Shown: positions 7,967-17,040 of the stretch, in pieces | Layout of the letters: each line of letters opens with the position of its first letter | Numbering within the stretch: position 1 is the first letter of the stretch | Assembly (NCBI GenBank): GCA_038063515.1 | Contig: JBBTUY010000001.1 | Coordinates: 10,972-74,971 of the forward strand | Reading direction: 5' to 3' | Source of the DNA: Patescibacteria group bacterium | GTDB lineage: Bacteria; Patescibacteriota; Minisyncoccia; Phycocordibacterales; UBA9973 | DNA length: 64,000 nucleotides | Made by a program: the position numbers and the translations under genes | Notes under the pieces: generated by a model | The model's database searches: none | What the model saw: the letters and a program-made list of their open reading frames with translations, nothing else | What the model was told of the DNA's origin: nothing

Positions 7967-8497
7967 ATGTTCTCTGATCCGGTAAAAAATTTAAAATTGT
8001 TTGGACTAAGAGAAGATAGTATTGTTGCAGACTTGGGAGCTGGGACAGGATTTTATTCTGTGGCTGCGGGGGGCATGGTTCCAAAAGGGAAAGTTTATGC
8101 TATTGAAATAGTAAAAGACTTTTTAACAACAATCAAAAACAAAGTAAAAGACGCACATTTAGACAATGTAGACATCATCTGGGGCAATGTAGAGGACAAA
8201 CACGGCACACATTTGGCTGACAGCATAGTGGACGCAGTTATTGCTTCTAATATTTTCTTCCAAGTAGAAGACAAAAATCAATTTATCGAAGAAATAAAAA
8301 GAATATTAAAACCTTCTGGGAAAATACTTATCATTGACTGGCTTCCCGAAGATTCAAAAGATGCTTTACCTATCAAATTCAAAGGCTCTATGTCTAAAGA
8401 AAGGGCACGGGAGATGTTTGAGAAAAAAGGTCTTTTGTTTGATCGTGACATAGACGCAGGTGTGCATCATTATGGTATGATATTAAAAAAGCAATGA
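7967..8497 (+). CDS. Class I SAM-dependent methyltransferase
   Basis: VADLGAGTGFYS glycine-rich SAM-binding motif. Confidence 0.6.
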   Translation: MFSDPVKNLKLFGLREDSIVADLGAGTGFYSVAAGGMVPKGKVYAIEIVKDFLTTIKNKVKDAHLDNVDIIWGNVEDKHGTHLADSIVDAVIASNIFFQVEDKNQFIEEIKRILKPSGKILIIDWLPEDSKDALPIKFKGSMSKERAREMFEKKGLLFDRDIDAGVHHYGMILKKQ

Positions 8498-14375: not shown

Positions 14376-14422
14376 AAAAAGACCCTTATATAGATACGTC
14401 TATATCGGGGGCTTTTTCTTTT
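14376..14422 (-). terminator. Hairpin plus U-run directly after the NYN gene stop
   Basis: AAAAAGACCC...GGGGGCTTTTT outer stem with an inner TATAGA/TCTATA stem; on the minus strand it is followed by a T-run. Confidence 0.55.
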
Positions 14423-14903
14423 AGGACTGACTAGAGAATTTATGATAATGATCATTTAAGAAGGTCAGTTCAATATTCTTATTTCGGAGTAAAATAGAAC
14501 ATTTGTTCTTATCTGGTGCTAAAACACAGGTTAATGACTTGTTTTGCTCTAAAAACTCAACAAGGCAACCAAAGTCACCATCCCCAGTTATTAAAATACA
14601 TGAATTAAAAGCTTTAGTATAGAAATCTGAAACATTTTTTAGAACGAGTTCAGCATCACAGTTACCCTTTATTCTTCCATCAACAGATATGGTTTGTTTA
14701 AAAACAAGAATAAAACCACACTCTTGAAGGTATTCATAAAATTTTACCCTATTTGGAACAAGACCTATAAATAGGTATATATTTTCTGGGTTATATTTTT
14801 GACGAAGCCAGCCTCTAAATTTCTTATAGTCTATTTCGAAACCAAGTTCTTTTGCTGCTCTGTAGAGATTATTTCCATCAATATAAATATTAATTTTATT
14901 CAT
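14421..14903 (-). CDS. NYN-domain (LabA-like) protein, putative RNase
   Basis: IYIDGNNLY, GNCDAEL and ITGDGDF motifs of the NYN fold. Confidence 0.7.
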   Translation of the reverse strand: MNKINIYIDGNNLYRAAKELGFEIDYKKFRGWLRQKYNPENIYLFIGLVPNRVKFYEYLQECGFILVFKQTISVDGRIKGNCDAELVLKNVSDFYTKAFNSCILITGDGDFGCLVEFLEQNKSLTCVLAPDKNKCSILLRNKNIELTFLNDHYHKFSSQS

Positions 14904-15661: not shown

Positions 15662-15700
15662 ACCTATATAATAGCATATTTTAAATAAAAAGTCAAGTTG

Positions 15701-15782
15701 TGCTGGAGAAGGGACTCGAACCCTTAAGCCTTGCGGCACTAGTTCCTAAGACTAGCGCGTATACCAATTCCGCCACTCCAGC
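15701..15782 (-). tRNA. tRNA-Leu (anticodon TAG)
   Basis: Cloverleaf with a 7-bp acceptor stem, CTTAGGA anticodon loop, long variable arm, GGTTCGAGTCC T-arm. Confidence 0.8.
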
Positions 15783-15786
15783 AATG

Positions 15787-15859
15787 TGCGCCCTGAAGGG
15801 ATCGAACCTTCGACCTTATCCTTAAGAGGGATCTGCTCTACCAGCTGAGCTAAGGGCGC
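15787..15859 (-). tRNA. tRNA-Lys (anticodon CTT)
   Basis: GCGCCCT acceptor stem, GCTCAGCTGGTAGAGC D-arm, CTCTTAA anticodon loop, GGTTCGATCC T-arm. Confidence 0.8.
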
Positions 15860-15902
15860 ATTATTTTAAATTTTTTAACTTCTATTTTATAACATTCTTC
15901 TG

Positions 15903-16087
15903 TTGAATCCGCTACAGCTGAGCTAAGGGAGTATTTTATATTTTTAAAACCTACCTATATTATTATCTAATAAATTATTTTGTTGAACCCGCTACATCTA
16001 AACTAAGGGCGCATACGTATTTACATCTTATTTTAAACTATAATCTTACTAAAAATCTAACGACCTACCAAAACAACTAAGGGTGCA
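15903..16087 (-). repeat. Three degenerate copies of the 5' portion (acceptor plus D-arm) of tRNA-Lys at about 75-79 bp periodicity (15903-15934, 15983-16013, 16056-16087)
   Basis: Shared core CTAAGGG[C/A/T]G[C/T]AT and GCTACAGCTGAGCTAAGGG; similarity decays with distance from the intact tRNA-Lys. Confidence 0.5.
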
Positions 16088-16117
16088 TTTATAAAACAAA
16101 AAAATTTCAAAAAACGG

Positions 16118-16199
16118 TGCCCGGAGTGGGAGTCGAACCCACATCCCTTACGAGACACGATTTTAAGTCGTGCGCGTATACCAATTCCGCCATCCGGGC
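16118..16199 (-). tRNA. tRNA-Leu (anticodon TAA)
   Basis: GCCCGGA acceptor stem, CTTAAAA anticodon loop, long variable arm, GGGTTCGACTCCC T-arm. Confidence 0.8.
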
Positions 16200-16259
16200 A
16201 ATTTATTTATAACCTTCCTAATATATCAGAGAAATAAAGAAATGTTAAATAAAATGCTG

Positions 16260-16332
16260 AGGCCACGGTGGGATTTGCACCCACGCGTCGCGGTTTTGCA
16301 GACCGCTGTGTTAGCTACTTCACCACGTGGCC
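16260..16332 (-). tRNA. tRNA-Cys (anticodon GCA), non-canonical T-loop UGCAAAU
   Basis: 7-bp GGCCACG acceptor stem, 5-bp anticodon stem with CTGCAAA loop, 5-bp T-stem; 3-bp D-stem. Confidence 0.65.
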
Positions 16333-17040
16333 TTCTATTATCCTTTTCATTACTTTATCGATAACTTGCGGTCGTAATTTAAAGTAATTATTGAATATTC
16401 TAAATTTTCGCATAAAAAAGGAATTAATGCTAGTGCCTTTATACATCAGCTTAAATAACTCTAAAGAATCTTTTGTATTATATATTAATTGATAGGATCT
16501 TTTACTTACATATATTTTACCATTTTTAATCTCAGCAATTTCTAAAGAAGCCTGCATTTCTTGAAGAAATAATTTACTACCACTTGTAAATATTACACGT
16601 ACTCTTTTGATAATTAATTTTTGAGTTTTACCTTTAGTTTGTAGAAAACTAACACAACCATCACCATCAAAATATCCTCTGACAAAGTCACCTAAGTATT
16701 TTTTTGGAATTTTAGGAAAATTTATCGTTAAGGATTTATTTGGGTATAATCCTAATTTAAAAAGGTCGTTATATATTTTATGGCTGCCTATTCTTAATAT
16801 AAAACAAATTTTTCCTCCTATGAAATTTGATTTTTTCTGACCAATTTTATGCTCAGAATTTAGCCAGTTTTTAATTCTATATATAGAATCTTCATCTGTG
16901 CTTGTTATTTGTATGTATTTACCACGCATGTAAGGGGAATCATCTAAGCTTCCATCAGCGTAGATATAACCTAAAACATATCCCATAGTCGGTGACCATT
17001 TTTTAAAAAACTTTTCGTTAACTTTATATTTTAATCCCAC
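16315..17040 (-). CDS. LAGLIDADG homing endonuclease, double-motif, free-standing
   Basis: Two motifs, LGYIYADGSL and VRGYFDGDGCVSF, about 100 aa apart. The 3' end overlaps the 5' end of tRNA-Cys by about 18 nt. Confidence 0.75.
   Translation of the reverse strand: MGLKYKVNEKFFKKWSPTMGYVLGYIYADGSLDDSPYMRGKYIQITSTDEDSIYRIKNWLNSEHKIGQKKSNFIGGKICFILRIGSHKIYNDLFKLGLYPNKSLTINFPKIPKKYLGDFVRGYFDGDGCVSFLQTKGKTQKLIIKRVRVIFTSGSKLFLQEMQASLEIAEIKNGKIYVSKRSYQLIYNTKDSLELFKLMYKGTSINSFFMRKFRIFNNYFKLRPQVIDKVMKRIIEGHVVK

Follow-up and report, generated by a model that had tools for sequence, protein, structure and literature searches.

The window (the whole stretch of 64,000 nucleotides that was analysed, with a GC content of ~37%) belongs to the chromosome of a groundwater member of the Patescibacteria, whose closest named relatives are Candidatus Nomurabacteria/Paceibacterota MAGs. 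Among the genes for IF-2, RbfA, a LAGLIDADG endonuclease, a membrane protein, an NYN-domain protein and ClpB, it carries a tRNA cluster on the minus strand, in which the interval of 256 nt between tRNA-Leu(TAA) and tRNA-Lys(CTT) is largely occupied by three units (U1, U2 and U3) that start like the neighbouring tRNA-Lys. The features of the locus are the following:

15700-15782, minus strand: tRNA-Leu(TAG), detected with ARAGORN and Rfam, 3 nt downstream of tRNA-Lys
15786-15859, minus strand: tRNA-Lys(CTT), intact, the source and reference copy of the repeats, detected with ARAGORN and scoring 67.2 bits with the Rfam tRNA model
15860-15932, minus strand: U1, proximal pseudo-copy of 73 nt, ACTCCCTTAGCTCAGCTG-TAGCGGATTCAACAG followed by an AT-rich tail
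15933-16012, minus strand: U2, middle pseudo-copy of 80 nt, GCGCCCTTAGTTTAGATG-TAGCGGGTTCAACAA followed by an AT-rich tail
16013-16086, minus strand: U3, distal pseudo-copy of 74 nt, whose first 33 nt (16054-16086), GCACCCTTAGTTGTTTTGGTAGGTCGTTAGATT, are a conserved motif
16087-16115, minus strand: AT-rich spacer of 29 nt that separates U3 from the 3' end of tRNA-Leu(TAA)
16116-16199, minus strand: tRNA-Leu(TAA), detected with ARAGORN and Rfam, the upstream neighbour in the conserved Cys-Leu-Lys-Leu cluster
16259-16332, minus strand: tRNA-Cys, detected with ARAGORN and Rfam
16315-17040, minus strand: LAGLIDADG endonuclease ORF, with its stop codon at positions 16-18 of tRNA-Cys

The sequence of the window is also found in contig Hain_H41_01um_R3_51 and in two other Hainich assemblies. 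Since three assemblies obtained independently from different samples (L001-L003) agree fully (100% identity) over a region of 801 nt covering the array, the array is not an assembly artefact; by the same comparison, these three near-identical assemblies show no strain-level variation in copy number.

In the sense of the tRNA, tRNA-Lys (74 nt in total) reads GCGCCCTTAGCTCAGCTGGTAGAGCAGATCC. A repeat search recovers its 5' end as one of the four copies of a 21-nt direct-repeat family, whose identities to the tRNA copy are 100, 90, 81 and 71%, and whose start-to-start spacings (73, 80 and 74 nt) come close to the length of a tRNA. The units are arranged head-to-tail on the same strand and are contiguous with tRNA-Lys at 15859/15860. 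The core CTAAGGGNGNAT occurs exactly four times in the 64 kb, always at this locus (15850, 15923, 16003 and 16077), against an expected count of 0.09, and none of 100 shuffles reaches four; a longer 20-mer, searched with up to 3 mismatches, gives 3 matches versus 0.00 expected. No further tRNA fragment was found anywhere in the window after a BLAST search with its five tRNAs. The copies of the tRNA 5' half reported in a preliminary description, which was made by reading the letters of the DNA, are thus real, and the end points given there (15934, 16013 and 16087, with spacings of 75, 79 and 74) are right within 1-2 nt, the starts of the units being placed here at 15932, 16012 and 16086. With the tRNAs encoded on the minus strand, the position of the fragments relative to tRNA-Lys(CTT) is upstream (5'). 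The retention of the 5' part, which had been correctly recognised and regarded as unusual, has in this arrangement a simple cause: the copies are upstream of a minus-strand gene.

Over positions 1-22 of the tRNA, U1 retains 19/22 matches, U2 18/22 and U3 16/22, so that the fall of identity with the distance from the gene is real but shallow. Moreover, the low identity of U3 is mostly due to one 4-nt block (CAGC->GTTT), which is typical of a conserved family and not of random decay. The progressive decay that had been proposed for the three copies consequently holds only in part, for U1 and U2, which look young, lineage-specific and decaying, whereas U3 is old and belongs to a strongly conserved motif.

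No tRNA can be produced from any of the three units, nor is there any detectable pseudo-tRNA among them. The tRNA covariance model (Rfam RF00005, with a gathering score of 29 bits) has no match in 15860-16115 even at E<=10, and the relaxed tRNA search suggested beforehand, run with ARAGORN at 90, 80, 70 and 60% of its thresholds, calls no tRNA or pseudo-tRNA in the spacer. A candidate T-arm remnant (GGRTTCAAC) in U1 and U2 was rejected, as it aligns equally with the anticodon-arm region and neither alignment is significant, and end-gap-free alignments of the unit tails to the 3' part of the tRNA yield nothing in the single species. The idea that the array belongs to one larger structured RNA, or encodes a small protein on either strand, has the periodicity in its favour and nothing else. 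The 256-nt spacer folds no better than its shuffles (z of +0.35 and +1.12 on the two strands), which speaks against the larger RNA that had been named as a possible refutation of the tRNA-derived copies, and nothing in it matches Rfam at E<=10. Similarly, no ORF of at least 40 aa is contained within it, and the small ORFs that run across the motif are conserved on neither strand (frames inspected by eye; for the reverse strand, in L036, L038 and the window). This explanation can practically be discarded. For its part, a search of the window for a trans or long-range partner of CUGUUUUGGUAG gave matches at chance level.

The relationships among the units indicate that they do not share the same history. 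U1 keeps an exact 15-mer, corresponding to tRNA positions 4-18 (15915-15929), has lost one G of the D-loop GG and is mutated in its acceptor part at positions 1 and 3; its global alignment to the remaining tRNA is weak (p=0.076). In U2, the acceptor part is intact, with an exact 10-mer equal to tRNA positions 1-10 (16003-16012), and the D-loop is mutated; beyond position ~35, the similarity to the tRNA is not significant on its own in either unit (p=0.79 for U2). The damage in one unit is thus matched by an intact stretch in the other, U1 having changed in the acceptor part and U2 in the D-loop, which is a pattern of neutral decay. At the same time, both carry the G deletion and a 14-nt block, TAGCGGRTTCAACA, and form a second repeat family of 41 nt with 80% identity; they are alike over their first ~36 nt (z=4.9), and not significantly so over their AT-rich tails (z=1.1). 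The comparison of either of them with U3 gives z=0.2-0.9. No counterpart of U2, or of the TAGCGGRTTCAACA block, was found in any other locus. The shared deletion and block, the 80% likeness and the complementary mutations together suggest that U1 and U2 come from one later duplicate and have been decaying without constraint. U3, by comparison with the tRNA, shows colinearity beyond position 22 (p=0.036).

The neighbouring IF-2 protein served to collect orthologous loci from GTDB species representatives and JGI metagenomes, which resulted in ~90 loci (58-76% identity), and three further loci were taken from a large protein collection. Downstream of IF-2 and rbfA, nearly all of them have the tRNA genes Cys, Leu(TAA), Lys(CTT) and Leu(TAG), often inverted or reshuffled, and the length of the spacer that precedes tRNA-Lys varies between 15 and 256 nt. 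They carry 0, 1, 2 or 3 units, with a period of 71-75 nt or, in a subgroup, of 33-40 nt (~37), as in L024, with three near-identical units of 36-37 nt, and in L029 and L072, with two. Copy number is thus dynamic, and the comparison that had been proposed to see whether the length of the array varies has a clear outcome. In the nearest relatives available, whose IF-2 is 75-76% identical, the array is absent entirely, without a single copy.

Other tRNA genes of the cluster have left fragments as well. In five loci, the last 19-20 nt of tRNA-Leu or tRNA-Lys are copied ~95-115 nt downstream; four species have exact copies of tRNA-Cys positions 1-18 located 94-103 nt upstream of tRNA-Cys; and in L072 a longer pseudo-5'-half of tRNA-Leu(TAG) lies upstream of the tRNA-Leu(TAG) gene. 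In the relatives, all of these fragments share the strand of their tRNA, and every 5' fragment is upstream and every 3' fragment downstream of it. Some relatives also present structured trailers that end in tRNA 3'-end copies. Taken as a whole, the cluster is a hotspot for free-standing homing endonuclease genes, partial tRNA-end copies and an uncharacterised structured RNA.

Partial copies beside a tRNA gene invite an explanation by site-specific integration, in which an integrase element would have repeatedly inserted and excised, leaving partial tRNA duplications of the attL/attR type. Indeed, tRNA genes are common targets of integration, after which one partial and one complete copy remain (PMC9897764). 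Nevertheless, in the cases described there, element DNA of 9-23 kb stands between the two copies (PMC9897764), versus the ~50 nt found here, and there are no integrase, mobile-element or phage genes at the locus. Neither of the two motif types has a match among the viral contigs of IMG/VR (0 matches, exact patterns only), the copies follow one another in tandem at regular intervals, and a vertically conserved motif makes up the distal one. Repeated insertion and excision, which had been offered as one of the two possible sources of the copies, is accordingly excluded for practical purposes.

The motif represented by U3 was defined in the present analysis as the tRNA-Lys 5' mimic of Nomurabacteria, and is not a published family. 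Its consensus is GCGCCCWTAGCT-GTTT-TGGTAG-GTCGWWAGATT, also seen as N7-WTARCT-GTTT-TGGTAG, usually followed by GTCGWWAGATT, and membership is given by the pattern N7-WTARCT-GTTTTGGTA(G), on the same strand and upstream of tRNA-Lys(CTT). U3 has this pattern, matches the consensus at 31/33 positions and scores 43.8 bits (E=1e-12) with a sequence-only model in whose training set it was included. On the contrary, U1 and U2 reach only 6.5-8.5 bits with the same model, through the 14 nt of the tRNA 5' end that they share with it, and do not belong to the family, since their D-loop is still of the tRNA's own CAGCTG type and the GTTTTGGTAG core is missing. The motif is present in 15 of ~42 distinct loci, in one to three copies, and of its 27 matches in the 641 kb that the loci comprise, 24 immediately precede tRNA-Lys on the same strand. 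It usually starts 71-75 nt upstream of the tRNA +1, or 33-40 nt in the subgroup in which it is tandemly repeated.

The conservation of this motif is very unevenly distributed. The 14 distinct loci compared have IF-2 proteins that share only about 65-70% identity; in their alignment, the columns at positions 1-12 are 82% identical, those at positions 13-22 (GTTTTGGTAG) 97% and those at positions 23-33 68%, while the 5' flank and the tail stay at 51-54%, an AT-rich background. From these alignments, the 5' third of the old unit is conserved far beyond neutrality, and the contrast between the 97% of positions 13-22 and the 51-54% of the flanks suggests that the U3-type unit is, or was, under selection; pure neutral decay would not account for the U3 family. 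Gene conversion by the tRNA could not maintain the 13-22 block either, because it is exactly in this best-conserved stretch that motif and tRNA differ (CAGC->GTTT). Motif positions 1, 7 and 10 do follow the allele of the adjacent tRNA, with 0.87 mean mismatches versus 2.26 when the tRNAs are permuted among loci, whereas positions 3 and 4 do not, and these alleles are scattered over a crude IF-2 tree. This allele-following could reflect occasional short conversion events, selection for pairing with the 3' strand of the tRNA, or the exchange between species of a cassette formed by motif and tRNA.

What, then, might the motif do? The best guess, of low confidence, is that it functions as a cis-acting leader element of pre-tRNA-Lys. 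More broadly, the U3-type mimic (and perhaps U1 and U2 as additional copies of it) may be a functional part of the pre-tRNA, where a second acceptor 5' strand and D-loop GG could modulate the folding of tRNA-Lys, its processing by RNase P or its binding by enzymes. This possibility overlaps with the duplication origin put forward below as to where the units come from, and differs from it on present function only. It finds support in the 21-33-nt core being far more conserved than its surroundings, in its occurrence in 15 of the ~42 loci, in its position with respect to tRNA-Lys, in the acceptor part of the motif following the cognate tRNA allele, and in the comparable conserved copy of tRNA-Cys 1-18 upstream of tRNA-Cys in four species. 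Furthermore, in two loci with a rearranged cluster (L081 and L098) the motif has remained with tRNA-Lys and is preceded by a conserved promoter-like sequence (TTTCAA...TGATAAAT), for which reason it is probably part of the leader RNA. Against this, RNAalifold finds no consensus secondary structure for the motif (0 pairs) and no Rfam family matches it, in 7 of 15 loci the motif would not pair perfectly with the 3' strand of the tRNA (position 3, 4 or 7 being mismatched), and ~60% of the relatives, including the two closest ones, do without it. In the window itself, U3 has moved from the usual -72 to -227, outside both of the customary distances, since U1 and U2 lie in between, and has changed in a nearly invariant column (C11->T), besides U1 and U2 being devoid of the GTTTTGGTAG core. 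On account of that displacement and that change, the motif in the window may be on its way out. A functional leader is, in sum, a possibility worth keeping, although clearly not the favoured one.

An even more tentative extension would be that the 21-33-nt copy of the tRNA-Lys 5' end, with its remodelled D-loop GTTTTGGTAG, is an undescribed cis-regulatory leader of pre-tRNA-Lys in Patescibacteria, acting as a decoy that competes with the genuine 5' strand, or with an enzyme of tRNA processing or modification. The motif, the tRNA-Cys 5' copies and the structured trailers would then form a class of tRNA-end mimics controlling maturation, of which the array in the window would be a local expansion. 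We consider this rather doubtful.

A different kind of function was also contemplated, namely that the units form a tandem array of promoters, every one of them contributing a -35 and a -10 element for the transcription of tRNA-Lys and tRNA-Leu(TAG). The subgroup with the 37-nt period (L024 and L072) has TTTGCA-17/18-AATAAT in every unit, and from these sites transcription would start a few nt ahead of the following unit or of the tRNA. Beyond that subgroup the picture changes: TTGGTA-16/17-AATAAT occurs in just 2/11 long-type units, and the motif units show no consistent promoter geometry. In the units of the window, no promoter-like or terminator-like site is consistently placed, with two weak minus-strand matches, both inside U2, and none was found in 16087-16115 either; an array of sigma-70 sites (-35/-10 with a spacing of 16-18 nt, at a fixed position in each unit) is therefore not what the window contains. 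Such a promoter array is very unlikely.

The presence of homing endonuclease genes in the cluster allows yet another explanation, according to which the fragments would be scars left by the imprecise repair of double-strand breaks made by LAGLIDADG or HNH enzymes in tRNA genes. In particular, one-ended invasion followed by illegitimate or microhomology-mediated joining would leave the old 5' end beside a freshly copied gene. The LAGLIDADG gene of the window lies in the same cluster (16315-17040, minus strand), and L020/L060, L069/L070, L061 and L010 have homologues of it at the same site, in a patchy distribution; in L027, a second LAGLIDADG gene occupies the space between Lys and Leu(TAG), and in L038 an HNH ORF lies between Cys and Leu(TAA). 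The order and orientation of the cluster are rearranged in many relatives, and the boundaries of the fragments are sharp and fall in the D-loop or the T-loop, those of tRNA-Cys ending at 18 nt. It also fits that a single block of 4 nt, as long as a LAGLIDADG overhang and with perfect matches on either side, sets the mimic apart from the tRNA, and that the differences at positions 3 and 4 could correspond to an old versus a newly copied allele. All of this evidence is, nonetheless, circumstantial: no endonuclease gene adjoins tRNA-Lys in the window, a repair scar would not be conserved, and a regular period of about a tRNA length fits duplication better. Breakage and repair of this kind thus seem improbable as the source of the array.

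The explanation that we favour, with a probability of roughly 0.7, is that the array consists of three non-functional pseudo-copies that arose by tandem duplication of tRNA-Lys and were subsequently pseudogenised, and not of scars of integrase att sites. That they were remnants of tandem duplications had already been suggested in the preliminary description, and the head-to-tail arrangement on one strand, the units of about a tRNA length, the variable copy number and period, and the colinearity of the family with the whole tRNA all agree with it. Unit length is 71-75 nt in the relatives and 73-80 nt in the window, compared with the 74 nt of the tRNA. In a family-level test and a MAFFT alignment, the units are colinear with the whole tRNA, having AGAT near position 30, and a block of the type [AG]GTT[CG]/AAGGTYG is found at unit positions 41-60 in 5/11 units, against 0.33 expected from shuffled tails; for instance, the unit of L011 reads TATGTCGAAG at the place where the tRNA reads TAAGGTCGAAG. 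The coincidence between unit and tRNA lengths, the colinearity of the family and the general arrangement in the cluster argue for the duplication of a whole gene. For U1 and U2 taken by themselves, the duplication of a whole gene would look the same as that of the spacer plus the 5' part of the gene.

As for the course of events, the copies probably arose by slipped-strand mispairing or by unequal exchange between direct repeats, each unit starting with the acceptor 5' strand and the D-arm and spanning about one tRNA length, the remainder of which would have eroded towards AT. The comparisons indicate that U3 is an ancient duplicate, from the pool of a Nomurabacteria ancestor, whose first ~33 nt are under constraint in many relatives, and that U1 and U2 descend from a later, lineage-specific duplicate that carried the 1-nt deletion in the D-loop and was doubled again, with both copies decaying independently at present. 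One gene must stay whole, and an upstream duplicate could lose its 3' part leaving the intact gene downstream of it unharmed. The asymmetry of the fragments, with 5' ones upstream and 3' ones downstream, would thus follow from a duplicate being free to erode only where the intact gene is not damaged. The array itself is presumably transcribed as part of a polycistronic pre-tRNA, from which RNase P processing would remove it.

If regarded as a plain array of pseudogenes, the locus is ordinary genomic debris and matters little. Even so, it indicates that the tRNA clusters of streamlined Patescibacteria still undergo small tandem duplications followed by erosion, and it is a warning to annotators that tRNA fragments of this sort are not att sites. 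The parts of most use would be the conserved tRNA-Lys 5' mimic, the tRNA-end copies and the endonuclease genes of the cluster and, should the motif act in pre-tRNA maturation, it would represent a new kind of tRNA-derived regulatory element.

With regard to known systems, the array is a case of tandem partial duplication and pseudogenisation of a tRNA gene, without membership in any curated RNA family, and literature searches found no described equivalent in CPR bacteria. The partial copies of attL/attR sites in phages, ICEs and genomic islands resemble it in that a truncated tRNA copy lies in direct orientation near the intact gene; however, kilobases of DNA with an integrase stand between those copies, usually a single pair, whereas here there are three tandem copies with ~50-nt spacers and no genes of an element. 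In organelle genomes with an AT bias, tandem duplication and random loss of tRNA genes leave recognisable pseudo-tRNAs between functional ones. Unlike these, the present copies are on a bacterial chromosome, and one of them is a motif conserved across many species. Furthermore, the spacers of bacterial tRNA operons can have functions of their own, as exemplified by the leuZ 3'ETS, which acts as an sRNA sponge, although such spacers are not known to be derived from tRNAs. The spacer studied here is also part of a tRNA operon, presumably transcribed, and could likewise carry its own function, but it is tRNA-derived and no partner or pairing in trans was found for it in the window.

The tyrT-tyrV locus of E. 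coli provides the comparison that goes furthest. Units of 178 bp are repeated there about three times downstream of tRNA-Tyr, each with the last ~19 nt of the tRNA, and they are the source of the RttR/rtT RNA. When this locus was checked in strain K-12, the tandem 178-bp units were found with copies spaced 178, 178 and 297 nt, the first of which overlaps the 3' end of tyrV, with rttR annotated within. Unequal recombination is the presumed origin of both the tyrT units and the present array. In both cases, head-to-tail units flank an intact tRNA gene, in the same orientation as it, and start with a short terminal piece of the tRNA; the array in the window has a near-constant period, directly abuts the gene, begins each unit with the same terminal segment of the tRNA and varies in copy number among loci. 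There is no sequence relation between them, as RF00391 has no match in the window, and they differ in other respects: the tyrT units copy the 3' end, lie downstream, measure 178 bp, are 95% identical and give rise to a processed small RNA, whereas those described here copy the 5' end, lie upstream, measure ~75 nt and are much more decayed, one of them being a conserved motif. In their arrangement, the tyrT repeats are the closest known analogue of this array, which is their mirror image.

Copies of tRNA 5' ends lying upstream of the genes they resemble are, among the loci compared with the window (L-numbers, mostly orthologous tRNA clusters of related Nomurabacteria, each in its own coordinates), found for tRNA-Lys, tRNA-Cys and tRNA-Leu(TAA).

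tRNA 5'-end copies in the compared loci
L008 7844-7946; L014 8013-8106, minus strand; L027 7811-7906; L038 8014-8108: positions 1-18 of tRNA-Cys repeated exactly, 94-103 nt ahead of that gene
L024 8061-8170; also L029 and L072: tandem tRNA-Lys 5' motif (the conserved copy of the tRNA-Lys 5' end), two or three nearly identical repeats, units of 36-37 nt
L030 about 8040-8110: hairpin upstream of tRNA-Leu(TAA)

In all four loci that carry it, the tRNA-Cys copy is placed right behind a promoter embedded in the 3' end of rbfA, and it is followed by a conserved stretch of about 40 nt (CRTGAGCGWAGCGAA...CATTCCTCTGCGCAGAGG) that reuses the 5' strand of the anticodon stem in a new hairpin; this copy is to tRNA-Cys what the tRNA-Lys motif is to tRNA-Lys. 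As for the tRNA-Lys motif, every unit in L024 and the proximal one in L072 have a promoter-like TTTGCA-17/18-AATAAT, which would begin transcription a few nucleotides ahead of the next unit or the tRNA. The L030 hairpin combines tRNA positions 1-10 with an inverted copy of positions 1-13 about 50 nt further on, the two forming an acceptor-stem-like minihelix.

Other structured elements follow the tRNA genes, and one type ends in a copy of the tRNA 3' end.

Structured elements behind tRNA genes in the compared loci
L038 8985-9078; L019 8092-8187; L024 8242-8358; L070 6983-7097; about 12 more loci: GC-rich structured RNA, about 95-140 nt
L011 8175-8290; L033 8065-8181; L036 8173-8285 and 8393-8471; L014 8478-8591: structured trailers, about 80-115 nt

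The trailers terminate by repeating exactly the final 19-20 nt of the tRNA before them, from C56 of the T-loop to the discriminator plus C, and this terminal copy pairs with an internal inverted copy of the 3' strand of the T-stem; they also hold a conserved GGCUAU-GUA-AUAGCC hairpin with compensatory variants. The GC-rich RNA lies directly downstream of tRNA-Lys or, in L008, behind tRNA-Leu(TAG), and its 5' end (GUGCG, GUGCA or GUCCG) shows covariation with the five 3'-terminal nucleotides of the tRNA that precedes it. RNAalifold predicts 24 pairs for it, 16 of them with compensatory changes. It has no match in Rfam, and a search of 489 kb with its covariance model detected 17 copies (E<=0.01), none of them in the window.

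At tRNA-Cys, the window itself holds a further element.

Window 16315-17040, minus strand: free-standing LAGLIDADG homing-endonuclease gene between rbfA and tRNA-Cys, overlapping the latter (16259-16332, minus strand)

This gene has a promoter-like site of its own (TTGCAG-17-TATAAT), and its reading frame enters tRNA-Cys for 18 nt, using the TAG at tRNA positions 16-18 as its stop. L020/L060, L069/L070 and L061 have homologues (66-82% identical) at this site, L010/L043/L044 have a truncated copy there, and most relatives lack the gene. The window tRNA-Cys is a divergent allele (GGCCACGTGGTGAAGTAGC...) common to L070 and L033, the form in most relatives being GGCCTGGTAGCCAAGTGG...; both the window and L070 combine this allele with the endonuclease gene, which is what one would expect had a cleavage-resistant target travelled with the gene, and in L033 the allele occurs alone.

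Positions 8-28 of the two tRNA-Leu genes of the window form a 21-nt block that is identical in both (15755-15775 and 16172-16192). This repeat is probably the reason why short-read Logan contigs from this organism (L004) break inside tRNA-Leu(TAA).

Two genes downstream of the window tRNA cluster, a nuclease-type domain is encoded.

Window 14421-14903, minus strand: NYN-domain protein, 160 aa (PF01936, E=1e-15)

NYN domains are nucleases, and they are employed by the protein-only RNase P of eukaryotes.
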